A DNA stretch of 64,000 nucleotides from Verrucomicrobiota bacterium. GTDB taxonomy: Bacteria; Verrucomicrobiota; Verrucomicrobiia; JABWAM01. Shown here one piece after another: positions 5,458 to 59,100 of the stretch. Position numbers and translations under genes: made by a program. The first letter of the stretch is position 1. Each line of letters opens with the position of its first letter. Location of the stretch: assembly GCA_023269615.1 (NCBI GenBank), contig JAHFSY010000003.1, forward strand, positions 87,665 to 151,664. Reading direction: 5' to 3'. The notes below the pieces were generated by a model that ran no database searches, was not told the DNA's origin, and worked only from the letters and a program-made list of their open reading frames with translations.

Positions 5458-6294
5458 ATGTTGCTTCGTAACCTCCTGGCGTGTTGTCTTGGTCCGTTGC
5501 TGGCACCTTTCGTCCTGTCCGCGCCACCCTACGAATGGGCCACACCGGTCCGGCTGACCTCGGCCACCTGCACGGAATTTTCCGGGGTCAGCAGCCTTCC
5601 TCTCACCGCGGAGACGGTTTCTTTGCTGAAATTCTCTGCGGACAACGGTCTCGCCCTGCCCATGCGCGGGAGTGATGTGTGGAGCAATGGCTCGGGCGAC
5701 GAGATGTTGAAATGGCTGGGCTCCCTTGCAGAACAAAACCAGCCCGACACCACGCTGATTCTCTATTTCTCGACGCATCAGCTCAAGGACGGAAACACCC
5801 GCTTTACCGATGGCCCCGACCTGGAGCCGACACGACTGGTGGACGCCATCAACAAGGCTGCTGGACATTACAAGCGGGTTCTCTTCATCAACGACAGTTG
5901 TTACGGCACTGCGCTCGAAAGGGGCGGGAGTTTTGCAGACAATGTCATCCGGCTTTATTCCGCGAGGAGCGACGAGCTTTCCATGGAATTCAAATTCAAC
6001 AAGGGCCCCTACGGGCTGGAGGAATTTGTGGAGAAGGAGAGGGTTTTTCTTCGCGCCAACTGGAATTGGGATCCACCCGGCATGGGCCTCCTCGGAATCA
6101 TGGGACTCAAGGCCGGACTGCATTTCCGCGAGGAATCCCCCGCCACGATTGACCTCCAACATTTTGTAGATGAGTTGAGCCGCTTCCGTGATCTCTATAA
6201 CGAGGAAATCCGGCAGGCACGCGCCCAGCACCTCACGCTGATCCCCGCCAGCGCCAATTTCGACATCCTGAAACGCTCGCATCCCCCGGAGTAG
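5458..6294 (+). CDS. Caspase-like (peptidase C14/CHAT-type His-Cys dyad) domain protein
   Basis: 'LILYFSTHQ' matches the caspase His block and 'FINDSCYG' the catalytic Cys block. Hydrophobic N-terminus. Lies directly upstream of the CHASE2 cyclase. Confidence 0.4.
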   Translation: MLLRNLLACCLGPLLAPFVLSAPPYEWATPVRLTSATCTEFSGVSSLPLTAETVSLLKFSADNGLALPMRGSDVWSNGSGDEMLKWLGSLAEQNQPDTTLILYFSTHQLKDGNTRFTDGPDLEPTRLVDAINKAAGHYKRVLFINDSCYGTALERGGSFADNVIRLYSARSDELSMEFKFNKGPYGLEEFVEKERVFLRANWNWDPPGMGLLGIMGLKAGLHFREESPATIDLQHFVDELSRFRDLYNEEIRQARAQHLTLIPASANFDILKRSHPPE

Positions 6295-6309: not shown

Positions 6310-8784
6310 ATGAAGCGATCCCATCGAGCCATCTTTCTCATCTGTGTGATCATCTGGCTCATTGCCGCCGGGGCGATGCAATTCGGATGGGTCGAAAACC
6401 TGGAAATGAAGACCGTGGATGCGAGGTTTCGTCTTCGTCATCTAGTGATGAAATACTTCAAATGCGTCACGGTTTCCGACCAGGTGATTCTCGTGGGGGT
6501 GGACGAAAAATCGGTGGATCCCTTGAACAGCCACGCCGACCGATGGGGCGTCGGGGGCTGGTTGACCCGCGACCACTGGATTGATGCGTTGGGCCCGCTG
6601 GTCAATCATTTCAAGCCCAAGGTGGTGGCTTACGACATCATTTTTTCTCCGTTTCGCACCCCACATCGAGTCCAGGACAAGTCGGGCGGCGATGATACGC
6701 TGGTTGATACCACTCTGCAGAAAAGCAAGGAGACATTTTCAAAGCTGATCAATGATCCGGATTTTCCAAGAATCAAGTTGCTCAACCTGCTGGATGAAGC
6801 CTGCAACACGACCATGGCGTCCAGGTTTTACGACATTGAGGATTCCCGTGCTGCCGGCAAGACGATGCCTCATTTCATCACGGCTTGCTCGTTAACCTAC
6901 ACGAATATTGATCACGCGGTATTGTGGGACCCGTTGAAGGAGTCGGACAAGAAGAAGATTGGGCGGCTGGTGCCACGGCAAATTTCCTCCGAATGTCTCG
7001 GGCCGGTGCCATCGGACTATCTCTATGGACACAACGCGGGACTCCCCTTCGACGATCTGGTGGATTCCCCGATCCGCATGGCCTCCATCAATGTCCCGCG
7101 CGATGAGGACGGCACCTTGCGGCGTGTCCCCCTGGTGATCGGGTTCCGCAATCCGCTTGATGGAGACAAACCTGTATTCATCCCGTCCATGTCGCTCATG
7201 GCGTGCCTGATTTATCTTGGCCTCGACGCCGATCCATCCCAGTGGAAGGGTGATCCCAGGTCTCCCCAGGGCATGCACGTGGACTTTGGCAGGGAGCTTC
7301 ATGTGTGGGCTCCCGGGCGGGACATCCGGATCCCCATTGATTCGCAGGGAAGGATGTTTTTGAATTTTGCCGGCACGATCCCGGATTATTACCAGGTTCC
7401 CTACGTGGCGGTTTCGGATTACGGCGAGGTGCTGGCCGCGGAAAACTCGCTGAGTCCGGAACAGCGAAAGCAGGCGGAGGTGGCGCTGGACACCGCCCAC
7501 CGGATGCAGAAACGGTTGCAGGGCAGGATTGCCCTCATCGGATTGACGTTCACCGGTGGCACCGACGTGGGGCCATGCGCGGTGGATTCCAACACGCCGC
7601 TGGTTTTCATTCACATGACGGCCATTGACAATATTCTGCGGGAGAGTTTTTTGCGTCCGATGAACCATGCCTGGACCGTGGCGCTGCTCACCGTGTTGCT
7701 GGGGTTGATCGGCTGGATCAACACGCATCGCAGCGCAGGGGCGTCGGCGCGCAACACGGTGGCGTTATTGCTGGGCACGGAGCTCATGGCGTTGGTCTTG
7801 TTTTTTGCGAACATCACGATCGTGCCGATGATGGTGACAGGGTTGCCCATGCTGGTCGCCGTTGGGGCCATCTCGCTTTTTCGCTACGGGGTGGAGCAAA
7901 AGGGAAGAATGGAAATCCGGAAAAAATTCTCGGCGATGGTTTCTGGAAAGGTGCTCCAGTACATGGAGGAGCATCCGGAAAAAATTTCCGGCGAACGCCG
8001 CGAAGTCACGATGTTCTTCTCGGACGTGGCGGGTTTCACCAGCATGTCCGAAAAACTTTCGCCGGAAAAACTCGGCAAGATTCTGAACGATTACCTCACG
8101 CCCATGGCTGACCTGATCCTGGCTCATGATGGCTACTTGAATAAATTTGCAGGGGACGGGATCATGGCCGTATGGGGCGTGCCTTACCCGGATCTCAACC
8201 ACGCCTCGCTGGCCTGCATGGCCGCGTTGCAACAACAGGTGAAGATTCAGGAGTTGAAGCCTGTTTTTCGCGAGCAATTCGGTTTGGAGTTGAAGGTCCG
8301 CATGGGATTGAATACGGGTGTGGTTTCGGCGGGAAACATGGGGTCCAAAAACCGCTACGAATACACGGTGATGGGCGACGCCGTGAATTTTGCAGCGCGC
8401 CTCGAGCCTTCCAACAAGGAATACGGCACCTCCATCATGATCGGCGAACAAACGCATCTTGAGGCGAAGGATGTGGTCATCACGCGACGTCTCGACCGCC
8501 TTGTGGTCACGGGCAAGACGGAACCCGTGCAGGTGTATGAGCTGGTGGGTCGCAAAGGGGATGTTTCCGAGGAAAAGATTCGCGGTCTCCGGGTCTTCGA
8601 GGAGGGTTTGGAATTGTATTGGAAGCGCGAATGGGAGAAGGCGCTGGAGGCGTTTCATGAAACACAGCGTCTCATCCCGCACGATCCCCCTGCCCAGGTT
8701 TTCATCCATCGGGCCAAACATTTCCAGTTGCATCCCCCGCCCGAAGGCTGGAAGGGCGAATACAAACGCGCCAGCAAGGATTGA
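6310..8784 (+). CDS. CHASE2 sensor-domain class III adenylate/guanylate cyclase with a C-terminal TPR-like region
   Basis: N-terminal TM plus a large extracytoplasmic CHASE2-like region, then TM helices, then a cyclase domain ('FFSDVAGFTSMSE', 'FAGDGIMAVWG', 'YTVMGDAVNFAARLE'). Confidence 0.8.
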   Translation: MKRSHRAIFLICVIIWLIAAGAMQFGWVENLEMKTVDARFRLRHLVMKYFKCVTVSDQVILVGVDEKSVDPLNSHADRWGVGGWLTRDHWIDALGPLVNHFKPKVVAYDIIFSPFRTPHRVQDKSGGDDTLVDTTLQKSKETFSKLINDPDFPRIKLLNLLDEACNTTMASRFYDIEDSRAAGKTMPHFITACSLTYTNIDHAVLWDPLKESDKKKIGRLVPRQISSECLGPVPSDYLYGHNAGLPFDDLVDSPIRMASINVPRDEDGTLRRVPLVIGFRNPLDGDKPVFIPSMSLMACLIYLGLDADPSQWKGDPRSPQGMHVDFGRELHVWAPGRDIRIPIDSQGRMFLNFAGTIPDYYQVPYVAVSDYGEVLAAENSLSPEQRKQAEVALDTAHRMQKRLQGRIALIGLTFTGGTDVGPCAVDSNTPLVFIHMTAIDNILRESFLRPMNHAWTVALLTVLLGLIGWINTHRSAGASARNTVALLLGTELMALVLFFANITIVPMMVTGLPMLVAVGAISLFRYGVEQKGRMEIRKKFSAMVSGKVLQYMEEHPEKISGERREVTMFFSDVAGFTSMSEKLSPEKLGKILNDYLTPMADLILAHDGYLNKFAGDGIMAVWGVPYPDLNHASLACMAALQQQVKIQELKPVFREQFGLELKVRMGLNTGVVSAGNMGSKNRYEYTVMGDAVNFAARLEPSNKEYGTSIMIGEQTHLEAKDVVITRRLDRLVVTGKTEPVQVYELVGRKGDVSEEKIRGLRVFEEGLELYWKREWEKALEAFHETQRLIPHDPPAQVFIHRAKHFQLHPPPEGWKGEYKRASKD

Positions 8785-11556: not shown

Positions 11557-12951
11557 TCAACTTGCGCGGAAAAAAAGCCACCACACGGCGACCAGCATGG
11601 GCAGCAGGATGGGCAGGGTGAATTTGAAGATGAAGCCGAAAAAGGAAGGAACCTTCACGCCGGCATGCTCGGCGATGCTCTTCACCATGAAATTCGGGCC
11701 GTTGCCGATGTAGGTGCAGGCGCCAAAGAAAACCGCGCCGATGCTGATCGCGGCGATGTACTTCGCGTAATTCACCAGGAGCCATGCGATTTGGATGTCG
11801 GAGTCTGTCGGGCTCGAAACATTGTGATGAGTGATGAAATCCGCAGTGCTGCTTTCCGGAGTTGGTACAAATGCGGACACGACGATGCTGGGTTCGCTCA
11901 CGATGTGACGGATGTTTTCAATCGTTTGAGGAGAAGGGCCGTAAATGCCTCCCGCCGCGCTCAGGAAATTCAGGTACGTTGGCGCGTTGTCGAGCACCGA
12001 GGAGAGAGAGCCGCTTCCCCAGTAGAAACTTGATACAGAATGGATGCCGAGGCCCCGGGCATTTGCTTCCAGCCAATCGAGCGCGGGCATCATGGTCATG
12101 AAGATTCCCGCGAACAGGATCGCCACTTCGCGCACGGGCTTCCATGAGAAATCATTTCTCTCGTAAATCTCCGGGTCGGTGAAGAATCGCGAGGCGATCA
12201 TCGCAATGATCATCATGATCTCGCGCAGAAACATGGGTGACTGGATGAAAAGCGACCACAGGATCAGCCCGATCATCGCAATGTTGGGAAGCCCCTCGAT
12301 CTTCCATGTTTTGTTTTCGGTTTCCTTTTCGCGGACGGACTCGGGCGCACGACGGAAATTCAAGGTGTCCACGATGAAAAACACGACGAGCAGCCAGGCG
12401 ACACCCACGCTCCACATGGGAAGGAGTTCGTACAATGTCCACATGAACGGGATGCCCTTGAGAAATCCGAGGTAAAGCGGCGGATCACCAATGGGCGTGA
12501 GCGCGCCGCCGACATTGCTCACGATGAAGATGAAGAAGACAACGTGGTACGAGGTGATCCGGTATTTGTTGGCCCGCAGGTAGGGGCGGATCAGCACCAT
12601 CGAGGCGCCCGTCGTGCCGATCAGGTTGGCGAGGACGGCGCCGAATCCGAGAAGCAATGTATTGAGAAGCGGCGTGGATTCACCCTTTACGCGGATGAGA
12701 ATGCCGCCCGAGACGACGAACAGGGCACCCGTGAGGCAGATGAAGCTGAAATAATCATGGGCGCTTTCCAGTGGCCGCCCCGTCTGTTTGAGAACGACAA
12801 GATAATACCCCAGCGTCAGGAGCGAGAGGACGAGTACGACCTTGGGATAATGACGTTCCCACCATTCGTGGGCGAGCAGGGGCATGATCGCGATGCAGCC
12901 GAGCAGGACCGCGAAGGGCAGGATCATCCACGGATTGACGGAGGGATGCAT
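11557..12951 (-). CDS. Ion-transporter superfamily permease (ArsB/NhaD/CitMHS-like)
   Basis: 464 aa, about 12 TM helices, with the internal duplication typical of ArsB/NhaD-fold anion/cation permeases. Confidence 0.55.
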   Translation of the reverse strand: MHPSVNPWMILPFAVLLGCIAIMPLLAHEWWERHYPKVVLVLSLLTLGYYLVVLKQTGRPLESAHDYFSFICLTGALFVVSGGILIRVKGESTPLLNTLLLGFGAVLANLIGTTGASMVLIRPYLRANKYRITSYHVVFFIFIVSNVGGALTPIGDPPLYLGFLKGIPFMWTLYELLPMWSVGVAWLLVVFFIVDTLNFRRAPESVREKETENKTWKIEGLPNIAMIGLILWSLFIQSPMFLREIMMIIAMIASRFFTDPEIYERNDFSWKPVREVAILFAGIFMTMMPALDWLEANARGLGIHSVSSFYWGSGSLSSVLDNAPTYLNFLSAAGGIYGPSPQTIENIRHIVSEPSIVVSAFVPTPESSTADFITHHNVSSPTDSDIQIAWLLVNYAKYIAAISIGAVFFGACTYIGNGPNFMVKSIAEHAGVKVPSFFGFIFKFTLPILLPMLVAVWWLFFRAS

Positions 12952-12952
12952 G

Positions 12953-12990
12953 AGGAGAATGAAGAATGAAAAATGAAGAATGAAAAATTA
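12953..12990. repeat. GAATGAA octamer-repeat element (AATGAAGA/AATGAAAA tandem), copy R1
   Basis: 'gagaatgaagaatgaaaaatgaagaatgaaaaatta' lies immediately 5' of the transporter start codon. Confidence 0.6.
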
Positions 12991-13080
12991 GAAATTATCC
13001 TGAAACAAACAGGGGTCGCGGACGGCCACGTGAAACGTGGTGAACATCGCCTCTCACATTTGGATTCCACGCTCTGCGTT

Positions 13081-21485: not shown

Positions 21486-21487
21486 GC

Positions 21488-21538
21488 AAATGAAGGCAAA
21501 TGAAGAATGAAAAATGAAGAATGAAAAAATAGAACTGA
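21488..21538. repeat. GAATGAA octamer-repeat element, copy R2
   Basis: 'aaatgaaggcaaatgaagaatgaaaaatgaagaatgaaaaaatag' lies immediately after the SDR stop. Confidence 0.6.
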
Positions 21539-21625
21539 AAGACTCGGCGGAATATTTTTCGTGCTGGATCATCCGTTAGGCGAATGGGATAGCAGAATAA
21601 GCTGGGACATTTTTCATTTATTTTT

Positions 21626-23020
21626 ATGCGCATCGCATACCTGCCATTTTACGTGAATTACTACGAGGGCATCTGCCCGGATTTTCCGCGCGAGAAGACG
21701 GAAGCGGCCCGGCGTTGTGCCGGCGTGCTGGCGAAGCATGGCGAGCTGGTCTGGGATGGAAAGTTGATTTGCGACGTCGCGCAGGCGGAGGCCGCGGGAA
21801 AAGCGCTGGCCGGCCAGCAGCTCGATTGCGTGGTGGTTTTCACGAGCATCGCGGTATTTGGCGGAATTCCGTGGGCTGCGTTGAAGCACATTCAAGCGCC
21901 CATCCTCATCTGGAACGCGCAGGCGATCCCGAGTGTGGGGAAGGGCTACACGATGGTGGAGATCGTGCGCAACACGGGGCAGATCGGGACGCAGGCCCTC
22001 GCCAATACGCTTCTGCGCGAGGGGAGATGGTTCCGCGTGGTGACGGCGTATGAGAAAAGCCCGCGGACCGCGGCGGAACTCAAAAAGTTTTTCGGAGTCA
22101 TCCACGCCGTCTCTGCCGTGAAACGGGCCCGCCTACTCGCCGTGGGCGAATCGTTTCCGATGATGACGGATATTCTCATGGACGAGGCCGACCTTGCGAA
22201 ACACATCGGGGCAAGTGTCACGCATGTTTCAAACGCGGAACTCACCAGCCGTTACGAGTCGGTGCCCGATGGAGCCGTGAAAAAGACCATGCTTGAGATG
22301 AGGAATTCAAACCAGGTGAAGGAGTTGACGGAGGACGAGATTGTGCGCTCGTCGCGCCTTTGCGCGAGCCTCGACTCGCTGGTCGGGGAACATCGTGCCG
22401 ATGCGGGCACGCTCAATTGTCATGTGGGGGTTTGTTTGAGAAATCCAAAAATCGGCGTCACCGCGTGCTACAGCCTGGGTGTACAGAACAGCCAGGGACG
22501 TCCGTTCACCTGCACCGGGGACCTGCCGACGGCGGTGGCGATGCTGTTGCTCAAAAAAATGACGGGCATTGCGATGTACACCGAGGTGCAGGTGATGGAT
22601 GAGAAGCGGCGTGCGATCGTGATTGCGAATTCCGGCGAAGGCGAGGAAGGCATCCGCCGTCCCGGCTCCAAATCGCAGGTGCGCGGCAACACGAATTTCA
22701 AGGGGGTTCATGGGCGCGGCGCTTCGTTCGCGTATGCGTTGAAACCCGGTCCCGCCACGGTCATCAGCTTCACGCCTTCGCCGAAGAGCGCGAAGCCGTT
22801 CCGGCTCATCGTTGCCGAGGGGGAGATCTTGAAGGAGACATTGCCCGATGCCGGCGCGCTGGCCGGATTTTTTCGCTTTGCCCATGCCGACCTTCACACG
22901 GGTTACACGCGCTGGCTCGAGGCGGGTGCCGTGCACCACGCGGGAACCACCACGGGCCACTGGGCGCGTGAGCTTGCCGCGGCTGCGGAATTGCTGAACA
23001 TCGAATGCGTCCAAATCTGA
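21626..23020 (+). CDS. L-arabinose/L-fucose isomerase-family protein
   Basis: 464 aa. The N-terminal domain is arabinose-isomerase-like ('GESFPMM') and the C-terminus resembles the FucI/AraA C-terminal domain. Confidence 0.55.
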   Translation: MRIAYLPFYVNYYEGICPDFPREKTEAARRCAGVLAKHGELVWDGKLICDVAQAEAAGKALAGQQLDCVVVFTSIAVFGGIPWAALKHIQAPILIWNAQAIPSVGKGYTMVEIVRNTGQIGTQALANTLLREGRWFRVVTAYEKSPRTAAELKKFFGVIHAVSAVKRARLLAVGESFPMMTDILMDEADLAKHIGASVTHVSNAELTSRYESVPDGAVKKTMLEMRNSNQVKELTEDEIVRSSRLCASLDSLVGEHRADAGTLNCHVGVCLRNPKIGVTACYSLGVQNSQGRPFTCTGDLPTAVAMLLLKKMTGIAMYTEVQVMDEKRRAIVIANSGEGEEGIRRPGSKSQVRGNTNFKGVHGRGASFAYALKPGPATVISFTPSPKSAKPFRLIVAEGEILKETLPDAGALAGFFRFAHADLHTGYTRWLEAGAVHHAGTTTGHWARELAAAAELLNIECVQI

Positions 23021-23025
23021 TCATG

Positions 23026-24141
23026 AAAAAACAAATCATTCTTCCGCAGGTCGAGTTGAACATGGAAAGCTGCACGGTCGTGCGCTGGCTGGTGAAGGCC
23101 GGCGACGCCGTGAGGGCCGAGCAGCCGATCATGGAAGTTGAAACGCAAAAAGCCGTGGTGGAGGTTCCGTCCTCCGACGCCGGTTTCATCCGCAAACTCT
23201 GCGTGAAGGAAGGAGACTCGATTGGTGAGAAAGCGTTGCTCTGCATCGTCACCGACGCGGCCGACGAGCCGTTTGATTCTGAAGCTCCGCAGGCTGTAGC
23301 CGCGGTCGTTGACCGCGGTGGATCGGAAAGACCGCGGTCAACGACCGCGGCTACAGAGGAAGGCGGCGGAATCAAGGCCGCGCCCGCTGCGCGCAAGCTT
23401 GCAAAAGATCTCGGCGTTGATCTGGGAAGCGTGAAGGGCACCGGCCCGGGCGGAAGAATCACCGTCGAGGATGTGCAGGCATTTGATCCGAAGCTCCGTG
23501 CTTCCGTGTCCTCCGTCGTTGATTTCGTATCCCGGGTTGCAGGGGATTGGAATCCGCTTCCTGCTTCCCGCATCGCCCTCAACGCCCAGATGACAAAATC
23601 GCTTGCGGAGATTCCGCAGATCCACATCGTGCGACAACTGGATGTTGCGGCGATTTCAGTCAAGGCCGAGGGCGTCACCTTCACGCACCGGCTCGTTTGT
23701 GCCGTTGCCGCGGCGCTGGTGCGTCATCCTGCGCTTCGCATGGTCCTTGATCGCGATCGCGTGAAGACGGAACCCGTGAGCGTGGCGGTGGCGATGGACA
23801 CGCCGCGCGGACTGGTGGCGCCCGCGTTGCGGAATGCTGACAAACTTTCCCTGCAGCAGGTTGCCGCGGCGACCAAGGATTTTCGTGCGCGCGCCGAGGC
23901 GGGGACGCTGAAGCGCGACGAACTGGTGAACGCGCCTTTTGCGATCACCAACCTCGGAATGCTGGGGGTGGATTTCTTCAGCGCGTTTGTGTTTCACGGG
24001 CAGACCGCGGTCCTTGCCGTGGGGCGTTCGGTCGGGGGCAAGGCATGGTTCAGCCTTGCCGTGGACCATCGCATTGTGGATGGCGCGGAGGGGGCGAGAT
24101 TCCTGGAGACGCTGCAGCAGCAAATGCAAAATGCAGAATGA
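23026..24141 (+). CDS. 2-oxoacid dehydrogenase E2 (dihydrolipoamide acyltransferase): lipoyl domain, PSBD and catalytic domain
   Basis: Lipoyl domain with lipoyl-Lys in the variant block 'EVETQKAVVEV'. PSBD 'ARKLAKDLGVDLGSVKGTGPGGRIT'. Catalytic 'DHRIVDGAEGARFL'. Confidence 0.8.
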   Translation, partial: KKQIILPQVELNMESCTVVRWLVKAGDAVRAEQPIMEVETQKAVVEVPSSDAGFIRKLCVKEGDSIGEKALLCIVTDAADEPFDSEAPQAVAAVVDRGGSERPRSTTAATEEGGGIKAAPAARKLAKDLGVDLGSVKGTGPGGRITVEDVQAFDPKLRASVSSVVDFVSRVAGDWNPLPASRIALNAQMTKSLAEIPQIHIVRQLDVAAISVKAEGVTFTHRLVCAVAAALVRHPALRMVLDRDRVKTEPVSVAVAMDTPRGLVAPALRNADKLSLQQVAAATKDFRARAEAGTLKRDELVNAPFAITNLGMLGVDFFSAFVFHGQTAVLAVGRSVGGKAWFSLAVDHRIVDGAEGARFLETLQQQMQNAE

Positions 24142-24155
24142 AGAATGCAAAATGA
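24121..24155. repeat. GAATGAA/AATGCAG repeat element, copy R3, at the E2/sucC-like junction
   Basis: 'caaatgcaaaatgcagaatgaagaatgcaaaatgag' encodes the E2 C-terminus 'QMQNAE' and the sucC-like start. Confidence 0.6.
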
Positions 24156-25363
24156 GATTACTTGAACATCAAGCGAAGAAGTTGCTGGCTCAATTTGGCC
24201 TGGCTTTCACGCGGTCGGTGGTCGTGAGCAGTCCCGAAGCCGCTGTTGATGCGGCAAAACAGCTGCAGAATTTTTCATTTTTCACTTTGCATTCTGCATT
24301 TGTTCTCAAGGCGCAGGTGCCTTTTGGTGGCCGGGGGAAGGCGGGTGCGGTTCGTTTTGCTGTGACGCCCGACGATGCGCGACGCGAGGCCGGAGAATTG
24401 CTCGCCATGAATTTGCGCGGGGTCCAGGTCACGAGCGTTTCCGTCGAGGAGAAGCTGGCGTTCACGAGGGAATTTTATGCGGGCGTGGCATGGGACACGC
24501 AGGCGAAACTGCCTGTTGCATTGCTCAGCATCGCCGGTGGTGTGGAGGTTGAGCAATCTTCGCATGAGAACCTGGCGCGACGGGCCTTTGATCCATGGAT
24601 GGGACTTTCCCCTTACATCGGGCGCGAGATGGCGGCGAGTGTCGGGCTGAAGGGAAGGACTCTCTCGGGCATGGGTGCGTTCCTTGAAAAACTCGCGCAG
24701 GCATTTCTTGCCTGTGATGCCGTGACGATGGAAATCAATCCTGTCGTGGAAACGACCGATGGCGTGCTCATCGGGCTCGATGCGCATGTGGAGATCGAGG
24801 ATGACGCCGCGTATCGGCAGAAGGAACGCCTCGCGGCCATTGGTGACATTGCGCCGACGGCGACGGGTCGCGCGCCCACGGCGCTGGAATTGGAATCGCA
24901 GAGGATCGACGCCATGGATCACCGCGGCGTGGCCGGGCGCGTGGTGGAATTTGATGGAGACCTGGCCCTTTTGATCGGCGGAGGTGGCGCGAGCCTGACC
25001 GTGTTCGACGCGGTGAGGCGCCACGGCGGCAAGCCCGCGAATTATTGCGAGGTCGGCGGCAACCCCACGGAAGAAAAGGTGGCGGCGTTGACCGCCCTGC
25101 TGCTTTCAAAAAAGGGCGTCAAAAAAATGGCTGTCATCATGAACGTGGTCAACAACACGCGTGCGGACGTGATGGCCCGGGGGGTTTTGATGGGAATTGA
25201 AAAAGCGGGACGAAAGCCGTCCGAGGCGATTTCCGTGTTTCGCATTCCCGGTTCGTGGGAACAGGAGGCGCGGGATCTCCTGGCCAAGGCGGGTGTCCGG
25301 GCGCTCGGGCGTGAAATCTCACTCGATGAGTCAGCTAGATTGGCGGTGCAACATGTTGCTTGA
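24152..25363 (+). CDS. Succinyl-CoA synthetase beta-subunit-like ATP-grasp ligase (ADP-forming acid-CoA ligase beta)
   Basis: 'MRLLEHQAKKLLAQFGL' N-terminus and 'VLKAQVPFGGRGKAG'. Carries a 12-aa in-frame insertion 'QNFSFFTLHSAF' encoded by an inverted copy of the GAATGAA/AATGCAG repeat. Confidence 0.75.
   Translation: MRLLEHQAKKLLAQFGLAFTRSVVVSSPEAAVDAAKQLQNFSFFTLHSAFVLKAQVPFGGRGKAGAVRFAVTPDDARREAGELLAMNLRGVQVTSVSVEEKLAFTREFYAGVAWDTQAKLPVALLSIAGGVEVEQSSHENLARRAFDPWMGLSPYIGREMAASVGLKGRTLSGMGAFLEKLAQAFLACDAVTMEINPVVETTDGVLIGLDAHVEIEDDAAYRQKERLAAIGDIAPTATGRAPTALELESQRIDAMDHRGVAGRVVEFDGDLALLIGGGGASLTVFDAVRRHGGKPANYCEVGGNPTEEKVAALTALLLSKKGVKKMAVIMNVVNNTRADVMARGVLMGIEKAGRKPSEAISVFRIPGSWEQEARDLLAKAGVRALGREISLDESARLAVQHVA
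24265..24308. repeat. Inverted copy (R3b) of the GAATGAA/AATGCAG repeat lying in-frame inside the sucC-like CDS
   Basis: 'cagaatttttcatttttcactttgcattctgcatttgttctc' is the reverse complement of the R3/R4-type sequence. Confidence 0.55.
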
Positions 25364-26243
25364 TCCAAAAGCGGGAATCCTCGTCCAGGGCATCACGGGC
25401 CGCGAAGCCACCGGAATGGTGGAGGACGCGCTTGCGTACGGAAGCCGGATTGTCGCCGGGGTCACGCCGGGAAAAGGAGGCCAGCAGGTTCACGGTGTGC
25501 CGGTGTTCGACACCGTGGCTGAGGCGGTCGCAAAGCATCAGCCGACGGTGAGCGTGATTTCCGTTCCCGCGCCGGCGGTTCTTGATGCGGCGCTGGAGTC
25601 GTTTGCGCACGGGATCCGGCTGTGCCTCATCATGTCGGAGCGCGTGCCACGACTCGATACGTGCAAGCTGGTGGAGGCCGCGAAACGCGTGGGATGCACG
25701 GTCATCGGGCCCAACACGCTGGGGCTCATCTGTCCGGGCGTTGCGAAGCTGGGCACGATCGGCGGGCGTCTCGACAACGTCAAACAGTCGTTCAAGTCCG
25801 GGAAGGTGGCAGTGCTTTCGCGGAGCGGGGGGATGACGACGGAGATCGCAAGTTTTCTCACAAGCCGCGGCATCGGGCAGAGCATCGCGATTGGCGTGGG
25901 AGGCGACCCGATCATCGGCGCAAATTTCACGGAGCTGATCGAGTTGCTGGAGAATGATTCCTCGACGGACGCCGTGGTGATCTACGGGGAACCGGGCGGG
26001 GCGGCGGAGGAGCAGCTGGCGGAGAGGTTGAAAAAGAAACCGAGTCGCCTGCGCATCAATGCTTTCCTGTCGGGTCGTTTCGTGGATGATCTGGAGGGAG
26101 TGCGCTTCGGCCATGCGGCGGTGATCGTGGAGGGAGGCCGCGGCTCGGTGCGGGGCAAGGCGGCGGCGCTGCGCGAAGCGGGCGTGTTTGTGGCGGATGC
26201 GTTTGATGACATCTTAAAAGGACTGCAGGCAAATGCAGAATGA
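25353..26243 (+). CDS. Succinyl-CoA synthetase alpha-subunit-like (CoA-binding, phospho-His) ligase subunit
   Basis: 'ILVQGITGREA' CoA-binding block, 'CTVIGPNTLGLI' and phospho-His block 'FGHAAVIVEGGRGS'. Confidence 0.75.
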   Translation: MLLDPKAGILVQGITGREATGMVEDALAYGSRIVAGVTPGKGGQQVHGVPVFDTVAEAVAKHQPTVSVISVPAPAVLDAALESFAHGIRLCLIMSERVPRLDTCKLVEAAKRVGCTVIGPNTLGLICPGVAKLGTIGGRLDNVKQSFKSGKVAVLSRSGGMTTEIASFLTSRGIGQSIAIGVGGDPIIGANFTELIELLENDSSTDAVVIYGEPGGAAEEQLAERLKKKPSRLRINAFLSGRFVDDLEGVRFGHAAVIVEGGRGSVRGKAAALREAGVFVADAFDDILKGLQANAE

Positions 26244-26262
26244 AGAATGAAGAATGAAAAAT
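26230..26262. repeat. GAATGAA/AATGCAG repeat, copy R4 (left inverted repeat of the 4HB cassette)
   Basis: 'caaatgcagaatgaagaatgaagaatgaaaaat' encodes the sucD-like C-terminus 'QANAE' and the 4HB start 'MKNEK'. Confidence 0.6.
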
Positions 26263-26612
26263 ATGATCTGGTTCCGAGGACCAAGGCATTCGCATTGCGA
26301 GTGATCAAAATGTATCTGTCTTTGCCAAATACCACGTTGGCCCAGGTTTTGGGAAAACAGGTGTTGCGATCAGGAACATCCGTGGGAGCAAATTATCGGG
26401 AAGCAAACCGTGGCCGATCGAAAGCGGAGTTCATATCCAAGATGGGAGATTGCCTCAAGGAACTCGACGAAACGGATTATTGGCTCGATTTGCTGGTGGA
26501 GTCCGCGCTGGTTTCAAAATCAAAAATGGAGGAATTAATTGACGAAACCCATCAACTTACCGCCATCCTTATCACCATCATCAACAAAGCCAAAAAGAAT
26601 GATGAGCAATAA
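26247..26612 (+). CDS. Four-helix-bundle protein (TIGR02436 / 23S rRNA intervening-sequence protein family)
   Basis: 121 aa. 'VLRSGTSVGANYREANRGRSKAEFISKMGDCLKELDETDYWLDLL' matches the conserved 4HB core. Flanked by inverted GAATGAA repeats. Confidence 0.75.
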   Translation: MKNEKYDLVPRTKAFALRVIKMYLSLPNTTLAQVLGKQVLRSGTSVGANYREANRGRSKAEFISKMGDCLKELDETDYWLDLLVESALVSKSKMEELIDETHQLTAILITIINKAKKNDEQ

Positions 26613-26662
26613 AATGAAGGTCAGCCATTCTTCATTTTTCACTTTTCATTCTTCATTTTCTT
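26612..26662. repeat. GAATGAA repeat, copy R5 (right inverted repeat of the 4HB cassette, opposite orientation)
   Basis: 'ttcttcatttttcacttttcattcttcatttt' is the reverse complement of the forward repeat. Confidence 0.6.
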
Positions 26663-27640
26663 ATGAGCACACGACAACTCAGTATGGCGGAAGCCATCAA
26701 CGAAGCGATCCGTCACGAGATGCGGCGCGATCCCAACATCATCCTGCTCGGGCAGGACATCGGAAACTACGGCGGCACGTTCGGCGTGTACAAGGGGCTG
26801 TTCGATGAGTTCGGCCCCGAGCGCGTGCGCGATGGACCGCTTTGCGAAGCGGCGACGGCCGGATTCGGCGTCGGGCTTGCGATCAGCGGAATGCCGACGA
26901 TCGTGGAGATCGAGTTCATGGATTTCATGACGCTTGCATCCGACGCGATGTGCAACCAGGCGGCGAAGATGCGTTACTTCTTCGGCGGCCAGGTGAAGGT
27001 GCCCATGATCATCCGCACGCCGATCGTGAACCGCCTCGGCCTTGGCGCGCAGCACTCGCAAAGCCTTGAGGCATGGATGATGCACATTCCCGGCTTGCGC
27101 GTCATCATTCCCTCGAACGCAGCTGATGCGAAGGGGCTGTTGCTGACAGCGATCCGCGAAGGAAATCCGACGGTGTTTGTCGAGCATGTACGCTTGTATC
27201 CGTCAAAGTCCCCCGTGGATGATGCCGACACGCCGATTCCGCTCGGCAAGCTGCGCGTTGCGCGCGAGGGAAAGGATGTGACGATTGCGACCTACAGCGG
27301 CATGGTGAAGCCTTCGCTGGATGCGGCGATCAATCTTGCGAACGATGGCATCGAGTGCGAAGTGCTCGACCTGCGCACGCTTGCGCCGCTCGATCGCGAG
27401 GGAATTTGCGCATCCGTGAAAAAAACCGGGCGGCTTGTCGTGGCGCATGAGGCGGTGAAGACCGCGGGGGCGGGGGCGGAGATTGCGCAGACAGCGATGG
27501 AGGGCGCGTTCGATTATCTGCAGGCGCCGATCCTGCGCGTGGCGTCGAAAGACCTGCCGATCCCGACCGGGAAACTGCAGGACCTCGTTTATCCGAACAG
27601 TGCGGATGTGGAGACGGCCGTGAGAAAGGTGATGGAATAA
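26663..27640 (+). CDS. 2-oxoacid (pyruvate/acetoin-type) dehydrogenase E1 component beta subunit
   Basis: Transketolase-like pyrimidine-binding and C-terminal domains ('EIEFMDFM', 'RTPIVNRLGLGAQHSQS'). Confidence 0.85.
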   Translation: MSTRQLSMAEAINEAIRHEMRRDPNIILLGQDIGNYGGTFGVYKGLFDEFGPERVRDGPLCEAATAGFGVGLAISGMPTIVEIEFMDFMTLASDAMCNQAAKMRYFFGGQVKVPMIIRTPIVNRLGLGAQHSQSLEAWMMHIPGLRVIIPSNAADAKGLLLTAIREGNPTVFVEHVRLYPSKSPVDDADTPIPLGKLRVAREGKDVTIATYSGMVKPSLDAAINLANDGIECEVLDLRTLAPLDREGICASVKKTGRLVVAHEAVKTAGAGAEIAQTAMEGAFDYLQAPILRVASKDLPIPTGKLQDLVYPNSADVETAVRKVME

Positions 27641-27658
27641 TTTGTTGAAAGGAAAATC

Positions 27659-28621
27659 ATGAAACACCAACCCGACATGAAAACGCTGCTCCACTGGCAT
27701 GAGCAGATGTGGACCATCCGTTATTTCGAGGACAACGCCATCAGCAGTTTCCGCAAGGGGCACTTCACCGGAAGCACTCATCCGTGCATTGGCCAGGAGG
27801 CGATCGCCGTCGGAGCCGGCGCGGCTTTGAAGCCGACCGACCAGGTGCTTGCAACTTATCGCGGTCATGGTCATGCGCTTGCGCGAGGGCTGGATCCCAA
27901 GCGCCTCATGGCCGAGCTTCTTTGCAAGGAGACCGGTTGCAGCGGGGGGCGTGGAGGATCGATGCACCTGTGTGACGTGAGCAAGGATTTCTGGGGGACG
28001 AATGCCGTGGTGGCCGCGCACATTCCCATCGCGGGCGGCGTGGCGCTTTCCAACAAGCTGAAGAAAAACGGACGCGTGACAGCCGTCTTCTTTGGCGACG
28101 GCGCCACGTGCGAAGGGGCGTTCTTTGAGACGCTGAACATGGCGACGCTCTGGAAGGTGCCGCTGGTGTTTGTATGCGAGAACAACGGGTTTGCGATTTC
28201 CGTGCCGACGCACATGGCGATCCCGATCGAAAACATCGCACAGCGCGCGCAGGGATTTGGCCTGCCCGGGGTGACGGTGGATGGAAATGATCCTCGTCAC
28301 GTTCACGAAGCCGTGAGCGCCGCCGCGGAACATGCGCGTCGAGGCGGTGGGCCGACGCTGGTGGAATGCAAGACCACGCGATGGGAGCGGCACAGCGCGA
28401 TCTCGGCGGGCAAGTACGAAAACGAGGATGAGGCGATGAAGTGGAAGAAGGTGGATCCCATTCCCCGCTTTGAAAAATTCCTGAAGGATCATGGCGTCAA
28501 GGCCGCGAAGCTCGATGAACAGCGCGAGCGCGCAAAAAAGCTGAACGACGAGGCGTTGGAGTTTGCGATGAAGAGCGACCACCCCAAGACGGAAACAGCC
28601 GGCGATTTTGTGTTTGCATGA
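27659..28621 (+). CDS. 2-oxoacid (pyruvate/acetoin-type) dehydrogenase E1 component alpha subunit (TPP-binding)
   Basis: TPP motif 'VFFGDGATCEGAFFETLNMA...VCENNGFA' and 'YRGHGHA'. Confidence 0.85.
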   Translation: MKHQPDMKTLLHWHEQMWTIRYFEDNAISSFRKGHFTGSTHPCIGQEAIAVGAGAALKPTDQVLATYRGHGHALARGLDPKRLMAELLCKETGCSGGRGGSMHLCDVSKDFWGTNAVVAAHIPIAGGVALSNKLKKNGRVTAVFFGDGATCEGAFFETLNMATLWKVPLVFVCENNGFAISVPTHMAIPIENIAQRAQGFGLPGVTVDGNDPRHVHEAVSAAAEHARRGGGPTLVECKTTRWERHSAISAGKYENEDEAMKWKKVDPIPRFEKFLKDHGVKAAKLDEQRERAKKLNDEALEFAMKSDHPKTETAGDFVFA

Positions 28622-29460
28622 AAACCATCCGGTTCGACCAGATTCGCGACGCGATCGCCGGGTTGTGCCAACGGGCCAACTTCGAGCTGACTGCGGACAT
28701 GCGGGCCGCGCTGCAGGCGGGTGTCGAGCGGGAAACAAGCCCGTTGGCGCAAAATACGTTGAAGAGGATCCTGCAGAACGCCGACATCGCGAAGGAGCGT
28801 TCCCTGCCCATGTGCCAGGACACGGGGCTCGTCATCGTGTTTGTCGACGTGGGGCAGGACGTTCATATCGAGGGGGGCACGCTGCGCGACGCGATCAACG
28901 AGGGGGTGCGCCACGGATACAAGGAAGGTTTTCTACGCGCGTCGGTGACGGGCGACCCGATCCAGCGCAAGAACACGGGAGACAACACGCCCGCCGTACT
29001 CCACACGGAAATTGTTCCGGGGGATGCATTGCGTCTCCAACTTCTTGCAAAGGGCGGAGGCTGTGAAAACATGAGCCGCTTCAAGATGCTGACGCCGGCT
29101 GACGGGCGCGATGGAATCGTAAATTTCGTTGTTGAAACCGCAAAGCTTGCCGGCCCGAACGCGTGTCCGCCGATTGTGGTGGGCGTAGGCATCGGTGGAT
29201 CGTTCGAGTATTCCGCTGTGCTGGCGAAGAAATCATTGCTGCGCAAGATCGGCGAACGCAGCGCGCTCCAGCACGTGGCGGAACTGGAGGCGGACATTTT
29301 GAAAAAGGTGAATGAAAGCGGGATTGGGCCGCAGGGTTACGGCGGAAAGACCACCTCATTGGCCGTGCAGATCGAGGTGGCGGCGTGCCACGTGGCGAGC
29401 CTGCCGGTGAGCGTCAACATCGAGTGTCATGCGCATCGTCACCAGGAAGTGACGCTGTAA
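28618..29460 (+). CDS. Fe-S hydro-lyase alpha subunit (class I fumarate hydratase / L(+)-tartrate dehydratase TtdA family)
   Basis: 'MCQDTGLVIVF', 'NACPPIVVGVGIGG' and 'IGPQGYGG' blocks shared with TtdA/FumA N-terminal domains. Confidence 0.85.
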   Translation: MKTIRFDQIRDAIAGLCQRANFELTADMRAALQAGVERETSPLAQNTLKRILQNADIAKERSLPMCQDTGLVIVFVDVGQDVHIEGGTLRDAINEGVRHGYKEGFLRASVTGDPIQRKNTGDNTPAVLHTEIVPGDALRLQLLAKGGGCENMSRFKMLTPADGRDGIVNFVVETAKLAGPNACPPIVVGVGIGGSFEYSAVLAKKSLLRKIGERSALQHVAELEADILKKVNESGIGPQGYGGKTTSLAVQIEVAACHVASLPVSVNIECHAHRHQEVTL

Positions 29461-29495
29461 ATGAAGAATGAAGAATGCAAAATGAAGAAAACGGA
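29461..29495. repeat. GAATGAA/AATGCAG repeat, copy R6, at the hydro-lyase alpha/beta junction
   Basis: 'atgaagaatgaagaatgcaaaatgaagaaaacg'. Confidence 0.55.
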
Positions 29496-30045
29496 AATTA
29501 ATTTGCCGCTGGCGGTTGATGTCGCGAAGGCGTTACGGATAGGCGATGAGGTTGAGTTAAACGGGTATGTTTATACCGGGCGGGACCAGGCTTGCGCGCG
29601 GATGTTTGAAATGCTCCAGGGCGGCGAAAAACTACCGATCGAACTGGAGGGGCAGTTGATTTATTTTGTCGGGCCGTCGCCTGCGAAGCCGGGGGAAGTG
29701 GTTGGATCTGCCGGGCCGACCACGAGCGGGCGCATGAATCCGTTCCTGCCGAAATTTCTGGGCCTCGGGCTGCGCGGATTCATCGGCAAGGGATATCTCT
29801 CGCAGGAGGTGAAGGACGCGCTGGTGAAACATGGCGGCGTTTATTTTGGCGCGATTGGAGGCACGGGCGCGCTGCTGTCTGAATGCATTGAATCGGTCGA
29901 GGTGATCGCATTCCCCGAGCTGCTCAGCGAGGCAATCCATCGGATGAAATTCAAAAGGTTTCCCGCCGTGGTGTTGAATGACGCCAGCGGCGGAGATCTG
30001 TATGCACAGGCGATGAAGTCGGAACAAACAACAGAAAATCCATGA
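29482..30045 (+). CDS. Fe-S hydro-lyase beta subunit (class I fumarate hydratase C-terminal / TtdB family)
   Basis: 'GPTTSGRMNPF' and 'GKGYLSQEV' match TtdB/FumA C-terminal domain blocks. Confidence 0.8.
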   Translation: MKKTEINLPLAVDVAKALRIGDEVELNGYVYTGRDQACARMFEMLQGGEKLPIELEGQLIYFVGPSPAKPGEVVGSAGPTTSGRMNPFLPKFLGLGLRGFIGKGYLSQEVKDALVKHGGVYFGAIGGTGALLSECIESVEVIAFPELLSEAIHRMKFKRFPAVVLNDASGGDLYAQAMKSEQTTENP

Positions 30046-30055
30046 AAGGACCAAA

Positions 30056-30373
30056 ATGAAATCAATCGGACTGGTATTGAAATTGCGGCCGGGTTGTTAT
30101 GACGAGTACAAGAAAAGGCACGACGAACTCTGGCCCGAGATGGACGTGGCGTTGAAGTCGTTTGGCATCAGCATGGTGATCTATCGGCACGAAGACCTTC
30201 TGTTTGTCCACGAGACGGCGCCCTCCGAGGAGTCGTTCAAGAAGATGGGCGCGCACGCCATCACCCCGCGCTGGAACAAGCACATGGCCGAGGTGTTGCA
30301 GACGAACGAGAAGGGCGAGCTCATCTTCATCATCTCGCCGCTGGCGTTTGCGTTCGGGGTGTTCAAGGAATAG
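30056..30373 (+). CDS. rhaM: L-rhamnose mutarotase (RhaM/YiiL family)
   Basis: 105 aa. 'YKKRHDELWPEMDVALKSFG' closely parallels the RhaM block '[20 protein letters not shown]'. Confidence 0.7.
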   Translation: MKSIGLVLKLRPGCYDEYKKRHDELWPEMDVALKSFGISMVIYRHEDLLFVHETAPSEESFKKMGAHAITPRWNKHMAEVLQTNEKGELIFIISPLAFAFGVFKE

Positions 30374-30395
30374 GCGCTTCCGCGAATTCATCCAC

Positions 30396-31544
30396 ATGAA
30401 AATCAAACACATCGAGGCGATTCCACTGGTCCGCAAGCTGGAGAGCATTTTCCAGGGCGGCACCTACAAGATCACGAGCCGCAATACCATCGTCACTCGC
30501 GTGGAGCTTGACAACGGCGTCATCGGCGAAACCTTTGGCGGTGACGAGGACCAGTACCAGTTTGACGTCTGCCGGATCGTGAACGACATCTTCGCTCCCC
30601 AGCTCATTGGCAGCGACGCGCGCGACGTGGAAGCACACTGGGAGCGTATGTGGGCGACGAACATTGACCTGAACAACCGCGGCATTCACTCGCTGGATGT
30701 CGCGAAGCATTGCGTCCACGCCCAGGCGATCGCGGCGGTGGACATCGTGTTGTGGGACGCTCTTGGAAAATCGCTGAAGCAGCCGGTTTACAAATTGCTC
30801 GGTGGTTTCCGTGATCGCGTTCCCGTGATCGCGATCGGCGGCTACGTGATGAAGGGGAAGACGCTGGCCGACCTGGGACCGGAGATCGAGTATTACAAGG
30901 AGCAGCAGATTTTCGGGATGAAATTGAAAGTCGGCAAACTTTCCGTGGAGGAGGACATCGAGCGGACGCGGCTGGCGCGCAAGGTGGGCGGTCCGAAGTT
31001 TCATCTTTGCACTGATTCGAATCAGTCGTGGGTGGTGTCCGACGCGATGAAATTTGCGCGCGGGGTGCAGGATTTGAATCTCGCATGGCTCGAGGAGCCC
31101 GTGCGCTGGCACGACCAGATCGAGGGCAACGCGCGTGTGCGCACGCTGGGCATTCCCGTCAATGCGGGCCAGGGCGAATGTTCGCGACACGGCTGCCGCG
31201 AACTCGTGGTGCGCGGCGCGGTGGACATCCTGAACGTGGACGCGACGATTGCGGCGGGGGTGACGGAGTGGAGGCGCGTCGCCGGGATGGCGCATTGTTT
31301 CGGCGTGGGCATGGCACATCACGAAGAACCGCAAGTCGCATTGCATCTGCTTGCCGGCGTGGCGAATGGATTGTGCGTGGAGATTTTTCCGAACTACCAA
31401 CGAGACCCGATGTGGTTTGATCTCCCAGCGAAACAGCCCACAGTCAAGGATGGCTTCATGCATCTGCCGGACGCCGCTGGTTTCGGCTTTCCGCTCCGCG
31501 CCGACACGATCCAGCAATGGCGCCAGGCGGTTCCAAAAAGCTGA
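30396..31544 (+). CDS. Enolase-superfamily dehydratase/racemase (MR/MLE family), second copy
   Basis: MR/MLE capping domain plus a barrel ('KLKVG', 'WLEEP', 'ILNVD'). Confidence 0.8.
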   Translation: MKIKHIEAIPLVRKLESIFQGGTYKITSRNTIVTRVELDNGVIGETFGGDEDQYQFDVCRIVNDIFAPQLIGSDARDVEAHWERMWATNIDLNNRGIHSLDVAKHCVHAQAIAAVDIVLWDALGKSLKQPVYKLLGGFRDRVPVIAIGGYVMKGKTLADLGPEIEYYKEQQIFGMKLKVGKLSVEEDIERTRLARKVGGPKFHLCTDSNQSWVVSDAMKFARGVQDLNLAWLEEPVRWHDQIEGNARVRTLGIPVNAGQGECSRHGCRELVVRGAVDILNVDATIAAGVTEWRRVAGMAHCFGVGMAHHEEPQVALHLLAGVANGLCVEIFPNYQRDPMWFDLPAKQPTVKDGFMHLPDAAGFGFPLRADTIQQWRQAVPKS

Positions 31545-34574: not shown

Positions 34575-34637
34575 TGTAGCCGCGTTCGCAAGAACGCGGA
34601 TCCGGAGGGGAACCACGCTCTGGCGAGCGCGGCTACA
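34575..34637. repeat. REP-like palindromic element, copy C
   Basis: 'tgtagccgcgttcgcaagaacgcggatcc...ccacgctctggcgagcgcggctaca', immediately downstream of the fumC stop. Confidence 0.55.
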
Positions 34638-37907: not shown

Positions 37908-37914
37908 GAAAGAG

Positions 37915-38096
37915 GGGACAGGTGACAGGAGACAGGAGACAGGAGTCAGAATTCGGAATCCAGATGCGAGGTGTCATTGAAGTTGGACATGCTTTGATTT
38001 CAGAAGCTGGGTTTCGTAACAGCGCATCTTCATTTGACGGTTCGGAATTCATGCCACGTCACCCTTCTGTCGCCTGTCACCTGTCACCTGTCACCT
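37915..38096. repeat. Inverted-repeat element built from tandem 7-mers (GACAGGN x3.5), CCTGTCA family
   Basis: Left arm 'gacaggtgacaggagacaggagacagg' at 37915..37945. Right arm 'cctgtcacctgtcacctgtcacctgg' at 38065..38096, the reverse complement with 2 mismatches. Confidence 0.55.
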
Positions 38097-38115
38097 GGGC
38101 ACCAGGGTCCGCCCG

Positions 38116-58469: not shown

Positions 58470-58482
58470 AAGGGGAGTTTTT

Positions 58483-58568
58483 GACAGGATTTACAGGATG
58501 GACAGGATTTTTCGGAGGATGAAGCCGGATTGAACAGGATTTCAGAAAAGCCCGGGCGGGCTTTTCTG
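58483..58568. repeat. Left 85-bp inverted repeat of the GxxExxY cassette (CCTGTCA-family, ends in a GC hairpin)
   Basis: 'gacaggatttacaggatggacaggatttttcggaggatgaagccggattgaacaggatttcagaaaagcccgggcgggcttttctg'. Confidence 0.7.
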
Positions 58569-58634
58569 GGGTCGTTTTTAAGAAGGCGGAAATGGATTGC
58601 GCCTGACAGGAATCCAATATACATATGTATATGT

Positions 58635-59030: not shown

Positions 59031-59089
59031 AATCCTGTCAATCCGGCTTCATCCTCCGAAAAATCCTGTCCATCCTGTAAATCCTGTCA
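59005..59089. repeat. Right 85-bp inverted repeat of the GxxExxY cassette (about 97 percent identical to the reverse complement of the left repeat)
   Basis: 'cagaaaagcccgtccgggcttttctgaaatcctgtcaatccggcttcatcctccgaaaaatcctgtccatcctgtaaatcctgtc'. Confidence 0.7.
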
Positions 59090-59100
59090 AAAATTCCCCG

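Follow-up and report, generated by a model that had tools for sequence, protein, structure and literature searches.

A 4HB gene between inverted heptamer arrays at an operon junction of a Verrucomicrobiota bacterium: a candidate intervening-sequence-type cassette in a protein-coding transcript

Introduction

How does a gene of the four-helix-bundle (4HB) 'S23p' family, known from the intervening sequences (IVSs) of rRNA, come to lie between two genes of a catabolic operon? The question is raised by a 64,000-nt stretch of DNA from a Verrucomicrobiota bacterium (GenBank assembly GCA_023269615.1, contig JAHFSY010000003.1, positions 87,665 to 151,664 of the forward strand; hereafter the window), in which a 121-aa 4HB gene separates a sucD-like gene from the gene for E1-beta of a 2-oxoacid dehydrogenase. 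An earlier note on this DNA, made from the letters alone, described the gene as enclosed by inverted repeats and suggested a selfish or mobile insertion, in keeping with the family's rRNA habit. Here I argue that the element is probably a promoterless, IVS-type selfish cassette that has settled in a protein-coding operon and rides on the operon's transcription. What is new is the setting of this IVS-type 4HB element, an mRNA operon; rRNA IVSs with the same anatomy are already known.

The IVS in helix 45 of the Coxiella burnetii 23S rRNA, 428 nt long and called a 'selfish element', has an S23p open reading frame (ORF), a 28-bp terminal stem in which RNase III cuts, and 3-4 tandem GACAGAT heptamers just before the ATG, their number varying between strains (PMC4990558). 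Its design is that of the cassette described here, tandem heptamers included, which bears out the link to rRNA IVSs drawn in the earlier note. Genes of the family, as 23S_rRNA_IVP, have also been seen inside cas operons (PMC3936711), and rRNA insertions of bacteria of the candidate phyla radiation (CPR) contain them too. Homologues of the family include Avd, the accessory variability determinant of diversity-generating retroelements (PMC10053308). My literature searches found no paper on array-flanked 4HB genes or cassettes outside rRNA.

Results

A 4HB gene enclosed by inverted heptamer arrays

The gene lies in a sugar-catabolism operon, a run of co-directional genes in the order arabinose-isomerase-like, E2, sucC-like (with a citrate-binding domain), sucD-like, 4HB, E1-beta, E1-alpha, two fumarate-hydratase subunit genes and an enolase-superfamily gene. 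From left to right, the features at the junction are:

25353 to 26243, plus strand: sucD-like CoA-ligase alpha subunit, the upstream host gene; its C-terminal ANAE and stop codon are array-encoded
26228 to 26265, plus strand: left arm, about five tandem heptamers (GCAAATG CAGAATG AAGAATG AAGAATG AAAAATA) covering the sucD-like 3' codons with their TGA (26231-26243) and the 4HB ATG (26247)
26247 to 26612, plus strand: 4HB gene ('S23p' family), 121 aa, matching PF05635/TIGR02436
26595 to 26619, plus strand: degenerate forward copy of the array at the 3' end of the 4HB ORF (AAGAATGATGAGCAATAAAATGAAG), with clearer counterparts in two related loci, L140 and L143
26625 to 26660, minus strand: right arm, a reverse-complement heptamer array (CATTCTTCATTTTTCACTTTTCATTCTTCATTTTC) that stops 2 nt short of the E1-beta ATG (26663)
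26663 to 27640, plus strand: E1-beta of a 2-oxoacid dehydrogenase, the downstream host gene; its start (MSTRQLSMAEA) is intact and the same in L131, the closest relative

The encoded protein agrees with the family pattern both in size (about 110-130 aa) and in carrying the conserved motif RxxxSxxxNxxE (PMC3936711), present here as LRSGTSVGANYRE. It matches the Pfam profile PF05635 with an E value of 4.6e-20 and 72.3 bits against a cut-off of 33.8, and TIGR02436 ('four helix bundle protein') with 93.5 bits against a cut-off of 24; by sequence comparison its residues 11-118 match PDB entry 2rld (E 7e-25), which comprises five chains. This is the sole ORF inside the element. The G+C content of the cassette is 43%, against 60% in the remaining operon, and no intrinsic terminator or promoter was found on its plus strand. 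An assembly artefact is unlikely, because a metagenome contig from a separate deposit (L001) is 100% identical over 2163 nt across the cassette; this contig may or may not share the sample of the window genome.

Repeat searches, which covered 26100-26800 for direct and inverted repeats and the whole window for inverted ones, place the arms at 26231-26262 and 26627-26658 (32 nt, 84% complementary). Within them lie an inner part of 24 nt (26239-26262 / 26634-26657) that is 92% complementary and a perfect core of 15 nt (26246-26260 / 26643-26657). The TIGR02436-type gene does stand between inverted repeats, as had been claimed, but the repeat unit is not the octamer originally proposed: the period is 7, with units AATGAAG, AATGCAG and AATGAAA. 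With at most two mismatches allowed, the window has 21 copies of the two-unit 13-mer AATGAAGAATGAA against 1.69 expected, and 0 of 100 shuffles exceeded five copies. Altogether the 64 kb hold one 4HB cassette, at least seven arrays of the AATGAAG-type unit, and other array families besides. The minimum free energy and centroid folds predicted for the cassette are both closed by an array stem of about 23-24 bp, which encloses the entire 4HB ORF together with the sucD-like stop and the 4HB start; a local pairing of AAAATGAAG (26611-26619) with CTTCATTTT (26630-26638) is possible as an alternative to this long-range stem.

The left array is shared with the host gene. Across 120 orthologues, sucD-like proteins end in FDDILxGL plus mostly 0-3 residues, a few having longer, repeat-derived tails. 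The window protein ends in GLQANAE, of which the codons GCA AAT GCA GAA TGA fall in the array, and the 4HB ATG (26247) lies within the same array, 3 nt past the sucD-like stop. The earlier observation that the left repeat supplies both the upstream 'QANAE' codons and the 4HB start is therefore correct, and the spacing of 3-20 nt given for the rest of the operon is roughly right, the other genes ranging from overlaps up to gaps of about 21 nt. The same array-coded tail, NAE followed by a stop, ends the sucD-like protein (QANAE), the E2 protein (QQMQNAE) and, in L143, the 4HB ORF itself (QMQNAE). Read in the sense direction, AATGAAG arrays hold TGA and ATG in all three frames (as overlapping ATGA), so that any upstream ORF is closed within 21 nt with a start codon immediately after; this explains why upstream ORFs are neatly closed and the next one starts at once. 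In reverse orientation these arrays have no stop codon in any frame.

A lineage-specific gain where an operon gene was lost

Is the 4HB gene a regular member of this operon? The comparison set comprised 58 orthologous loci (about 900 kb): 49 belong to genomes of species representatives and the other 9 to the nearest relatives in metagenomes, whose sucD-like identity is 85-90%; the best match among GTDB species representatives is a Verrucomicrobia metagenome-assembled genome (MAG) at 84%. No 4HB homologue was detectable in any of the 58, including 16 operons that hold both flanking genes. The earlier note had named one observation that would speak for a conserved operon member, namely the gene recurring at this position in other genomes; it was made at 0 of 58 loci. 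What stands between the sucD-like and E1-beta genes in those 16 operons is a citrate-synthase-like gene of 252-263 aa, usually with overlaps or 10-20-nt gaps, and this gene is absent from the whole window (best tblastn E = 0.3). Since all 58 loci lack the 4HB gene and 16 carry the citrate-synthase-like gene there, the cassette is a lineage-specific insertion gained at the site of a lost operon member.

The suggestion of a selfish or mobile insertion gains support from this absence, as it does from relatives in unrelated contexts whose homology ends at the arrays (see below). The accompanying idea of an insertion that broke no reading frames needs qualifying: the insertion was not wholly harmless, the citrate-synthase-like gene being missing at the junction. 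L131 (98% identity over 56 residues of the E1-beta N-terminus, 88% in the sucD-like and 83% in the arabinose-isomerase-like protein) has neither the cassette nor a full citrate-synthase-like gene, of which a 26-codon stub remains, and the pyrimidine stretch before its E1-beta ATG resembles the right arm (11/16 positions, by eye). A perfect empty site was not found among the orthologous loci. For the missing citrate-synthase-like (citryl-CoA-lyase-like) gene itself, the loci to compare with window 26243-26663 are L015, L132, L133, L135-L139 and L131. Because that gene is missing from the whole window, the ATP-citrate-lyase-like trio may be nonfunctional here, or may be complemented from elsewhere in the genome.

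Relatives of the cassette in metagenomes

Does the cassette exist as a unit elsewhere? A metagenome scan returned 80 loci with 4HB relatives (44-76% identity), and arms were tested in the 62 loci that extend 140 nt or more to either side, mismatched locus pairs serving as control. An inverted match between upstream and downstream sequence scored at least 14 in 55/62 loci (median 21, against 10 for the mismatched pairs), and inverted tandem arrays of 7-, 9- or 10-nt units surround the ORF in about 50 of 62-64 relatives. The array unit tracks the similarity of the 4HB protein: at 56-76% identity it is AATGAAG, AATGCAG, AAGGCAG or GGATGAA, at about 50% GAAAGTA or GGAAAGC, at about 48% CGAATTT, and at 43-48% a 9- or 10-mer such as AAAGTGCCT. 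Two pairs of loci show where the element ends. L089 and L103 share 471 nt at 79.6% identity, from the first array unit to the last, between unrelated flanks; L056 and L058 share 439 nt at 87%, likewise bounded by arrays and in unrelated contexts. Because homology stops at the outer edges of the arrays, array, ORF and array move together, and the relatives, as aligned here, present the forward heptamer array, the 4HB gene and the reverse heptamer array as one discrete unit.

The upstream neighbour is co-directional in 48/58 loci and usually lies 3-60 nt away, a weak excess over a background taken as about 70% (p = 0.02), which is supportive and not decisive. On L140 and L143, both named Verrucomicrobia contigs, the cassette stands with its arrays between co-directional genes, that is, inside an operon. 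Arrays are also abundant around the cassettes: one strict detector found 0.04 per 10 kb in the 900 kb of 4HB-free orthologous loci, 1.16 per 10 kb on 4HB contigs outside the cassette and 0.94 per 10 kb in the window (ratio 26, p = 3e-13).

A third forward array, between the end of the ORF and the reverse arm, was considered as a general feature of the element and rejected, being present in only 5/64 loci. In L107 (2740-2990, 3350-3490), about 230 nt of compound repeats (AGTTTGG AGTTTGG AGTGCCTAAAGTGAGCTAA, about seven times) precede the 4HB gene and reverse-complement arrays follow it. Most close 4HB relatives lie on contigs shorter than 2 kb, which is consistent with a repeat element present in many copies and disrupting metagenome assembly.

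Arrays without a 4HB gene

Arrays of the AATGAAG family also occur in the window where there is no 4HB gene:

24122 to 24157, plus strand: array at the E2/sucC-like junction, encoding the E2 tail QMQNAE with its stop, after which comes the sucC-like ATG (24153); compared with L131 and L138, about 22 nt are inserted here
24274 to 24301, minus strand: reverse partner of the 24122 array, in frame inside the sucC-like gene, encoding NFSFFTLHSAF near codon 38
21495 to 21531, plus strand: array right after the stop of the SDR gene, with a weak reverse partner (21609-21625) before the next ATG (21626); its fold is weak (z = -1.2)
29456 to 29491, plus strand: solo array where the genes for the two fumarate-hydratase subunits meet; compared with L137 and L015, about 25 nt are inserted, and L138 carries an array-like insert at the corresponding position
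12952 to 12995, plus strand: solo array between two minus-strand genes, presenting the pyrimidine-rich arm on the gene strand and ending 5 nt before the ATG of gene 11557-12951

The NFSFFTLHSAF segment makes the sucC-like protein roughly 8 residues longer than in L131, L132, L133 and L138, and the reverse array is tolerated in frame there because, in that orientation, it is free of stops. In the predicted fold, the arrays at 24122-24157 and 24274-24301 pair as a long stem that closes around the start of the sucC-like gene (z = -3.1). Alignment with relatives identifies the sequence between them as native: it comprises the ribosome-loading region of the sucC-like gene and its codons 1-38. The description of the repeats as cassette flanks accordingly stands at the 4HB gene itself and falls short elsewhere, the arrays not being private to the cassette.

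At the same sucC-like codon, and again at the sucD-like N-terminus, the Verrucomicrobia MAG L014 has reverse arrays of the unit CTTCATC (4421-4457, 5588-5627); the array at the codon shared with the window insert gives the peptide ASSFIPHPSSF. This codon may be a hot spot, or it may mark an old insertion homogenised genome by genome. The gap between the SDR and isomerase-like genes is a second site where arrays coincide with missing genes, a 140-nt array-bounded spacer (21486-21625) occupying the position that in L131 (1584-2291) holds a 70-aa ORF and a glyoxalase gene. Other units form arrays as well. At 37913-38099 an ORF-less inverted pair of GACAGGA/GACAGGT heptamers, with arms of about 33 nt set 113-118 nt apart, folds very strongly (z = -5.8), and its unit resembles the GACAGAT of the Coxiella IVS. 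Short arrays of TCAAATT and TTTGAGA units lie at 60182-60204 and 62862-62885.

Other small-gene cassettes and palindromes

A second small-gene cassette occupies 58472-59099. Its GxxExxY/PDDEXK_3 gene (TIGR04256, E 3.9e-40; ORF about 58635-59030) has arms of about 100 nt (58472-58572 / 59000-59099) that are 95-98% complementary. Both arms include sub-repeats of the ACAGGAT type, and each has a G+C-rich hairpin that resembles a terminator. In the operon of L132, a close relative (6880-6950, 7700-8230), a PDDEXK_3 gene lies between the citrate-synthase-like gene and E1-beta with inverted CCAAACACGCTAAATGACGCC flanks; the same unit forms ORF-less hairpins there after the sucD-like gene and after E2, and the long C-terminal tails of two sucD-like orthologues (P0006, P0009) appear to read into it. 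Within the E2 linker of the window a perfect 26-bp palindrome (CTGTAGCCGCGGTCGTTGACCGCGGT and its reverse complement, 23294-23356) lies in frame and encodes AVAAVVDRG...RPRSTTAAT, a peptide kept in L131. Related TGTAGCCGCG-type hairpins at 34575-34637 and 61675-61734 look like a separate REP-like family.

Discussion

How would such an element live in an operon? The cassette would be transcribed by read-through from the operon promoter, and ribosomes that finish at the sucD-like stop would reinitiate on its ORF 3 nt further on (termination-reinitiation). By analogy with the Coxiella and Leptospira IVSs, the paired arms of the transcript may then be cut by RNase III. Such a cut would split the polycistronic RNA at the stem, and it is this cutting of the stem that would make the same element harmless in rRNA.

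Several observations weigh against a promoterless IVS-type cassette of this kind. Neither the window cassette nor the boundaries of L089/L103 and L056/L058 have a target-site duplication, and no recombinase or transposase was found in the element or among the neighbouring genes scanned, which are metabolic enzymes. The fold of the whole cassette is modest (z = -2.0). Mismatches in the arms, read on the sense strand over 1739 paired positions of 55 loci, comprise 55 G-U and 46 A-C (p = 0.43); with no excess of G-U over A-C this test of RNA-level selection on the arms is uninformative, and selection for pairing in RNA rather than in DNA is unsupported. A universal role of the arrays in stopping and starting translation was likewise rejected: the all-frame property holds for AATGAAG and GAAAGTA units, but GGAAAGC and CGGATTT units have neither stops nor ATG, so it cannot be the general reason for the arrays. 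The four further window sites without a 4HB gene do not fit a simple cassette with terminal repeats, and to account for the solo arrays and for the pair that encloses native sequence, arrays would have to spread on their own. Finally, the authors of the Coxiella study themselves doubted that S23p is translated in vivo (PMC4990558).

The alternative that survives best, possible though doubtful, is an element that works at the level of DNA. The arrays would be terminal inverted repeats, MITE-like or transposon-like, served by an enzyme encoded elsewhere, or would form hairpins in single-stranded DNA; the RNA stem would be incidental and the 4HB gene cargo. That cassette homology terminates exactly at the arrays is what such an element predicts, ORF-less inverted pairs and solo arrays are what its non-autonomous derivatives would look like, and the arm mismatches without a G-U excess sit well with it. 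Transposition has also been proposed before as the origin of the inverted repeats of IVSs (PMC4990558). Against it count the lack of a visible target-site duplication and of a transposase in the cassette or the neighbouring genes examined, and the pair at 24122-24301, which a single cut-and-paste unit cannot make around native sucC-like sequence. A DNA-level element would be compatible with RNA processing also taking place.

It is improbable that the arrays are host microsatellites, made by slippage at gene junctions like the GGGAATC arrays of Xanthomonas and the cyanobacterial STRR, with the 4HB gene merely caught between two of them and no cassette at all. Dispersed heptamer arrays, often as convergent inverted pairs near the ORF on their 5' side, are documented in Xanthomonas and Nostoc with no 4HB link described (PMC4692102), the copy number of the array varies among Coxiella strains (PMC4990558), and the arrays of the window outnumber its single 4HB gene. 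All this would suit slippage, but slippage leaves unexplained that array, ORF and array are inherited as one block across unrelated contexts, that the unit type follows the 4HB protein, that the arrangement is inverted in about 50 of the 62-64 relatives, and that arrays are 26 times denser on 4HB contigs, cassette excluded, than in 4HB-free loci (p = 3e-13). Least of all is the 4HB gene likely to be a functional partner of its neighbours, whether as a conserved operon member or as the Avd of a diversity-generating retroelement: its family is homologous to Avd (PMC10053308) and its cas-operon genes were taken as functionally associated in an earlier study (PMC3936711), but it is missing from all orthologous operons examined, and a Pfam scan of ten genes (21626-31544), all metabolic, shows no reverse transcriptase, template and variable repeats not having had a dedicated search.

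If the element is indeed an IVS-type cassette riding on an operon, the rRNA 'intervening sequence' is one habitat of a broader selfish element that also colonises the junctions of protein-coding operons, and 4HB-family genes in cas or metabolic operons should not be taken as functional partners of their neighbours. It would also give a concrete handle for testing what the proteins of a large uncharacterised family do and where the heptamer repeats of bacteria come from. The arrays also leave their mark on the host: they add codons to its proteins (here an internal insert of about 8 residues and tails on three C-termini), coincide with losses of operon genes, and probably fragment metagenome assemblies.

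A more interesting implication, still conjectural, is that dispersed heptamer arrays belong to one system with the 4HB cassettes. In its strongest form, which I consider rather unlikely, the 4HB genes are the 'autonomous' members of widespread palindromic elements made of tandem arrays. The 4HB protein, presumably as a pentamer, would recognise its own 7-10-nt units, in DNA or RNA, and drive or protect their spread, and ORF-less pairs and solo arrays, even those within coding sequence, would be non-autonomous derivatives. Compatible with this are the tracking of protein similarity by the unit, the 26-fold enrichment of arrays on 4HB contigs and the fact that arrays far outnumber 4HB genes. If true, it would join three observations that have stood apart until now: the ORF-bearing IVSs of rRNA, the unexplained dispersed heptamer excess of bacteria such as Xanthomonas and Nostoc, and the 4HB genes scattered in operons such as the cas loci.

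Comparison with known systems

Which known elements does the cassette resemble? Of the features of a transposon or MITE it has the inverted repeats; no target-site duplication was seen at the cassette, and no transposase was found in it or in the scanned neighbours. Rickettsia palindromic elements, Neisseria Correia elements and REP/BIME are likewise short inverted-repeat elements tolerated at gene junctions or in frame, where they do not destroy the host protein, and Correia elements are RNase III substrates. These are palindromes of unique sequence, however, with neither tandem sub-repeats nor an ORF, whereas the present element has tandem arrays for arms and, in one of its versions, a gene.

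Avd shares the homologous four-helix-bundle fold, is a pentamer and binds nucleic acid. Unlike the present gene, Avd genes are not described with flanking inverted tandem arrays, and no reverse transcriptase was found among the neighbouring genes scanned here, a scan in which template and variable repeats were not specifically sought.

The dispersed heptamers (GGGAATC in Xanthomonas, GGGGAYT in Nostoc/Anabaena, STRR in Calothrix) come closer to the arrays. They too consist of a few heptamer units in tandem, lie mostly between genes, near the end of the 5' gene of a co-directional pair, vary in length between strains and, in Xanthomonas, are often arranged as convergent inverted pairs. They differ in that those of the Xanthomonas and Nostoc type are G-rich and have been studied as formers of G-quadruplexes, while AATGAAG has no runs of G, and in that no 4HB link has been reported for them, whereas the arrays here flank a 4HB gene.

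Closest of all are the rRNA IVSs of Coxiella and Leptospira. The host transcript differs, being an mRNA at an operon junction here rather than a helix of 23S rRNA: no Rfam family reaches its gathering score in the window and the flanks are protein-coding. The heptamer is AATGAAG instead of the GACAGAT of Coxiella, the array here doubles as the stop of the upstream gene and the start of the ORF, and cleavage by RNase III, demonstrated in Coxiella, is for this cassette presumed by analogy. In the remainder of their anatomy the two agree: both encode a PF05635 protein in an element of similar size (about 430 nt here, 428 nt in Coxiella), both enclose the ORF in an inverted-repeat stem (about 24-32 bp), both place tandem heptamers directly before or over the start codon (here about five AATGAAG-type units that overlap the ATG), and both are regarded as selfish.

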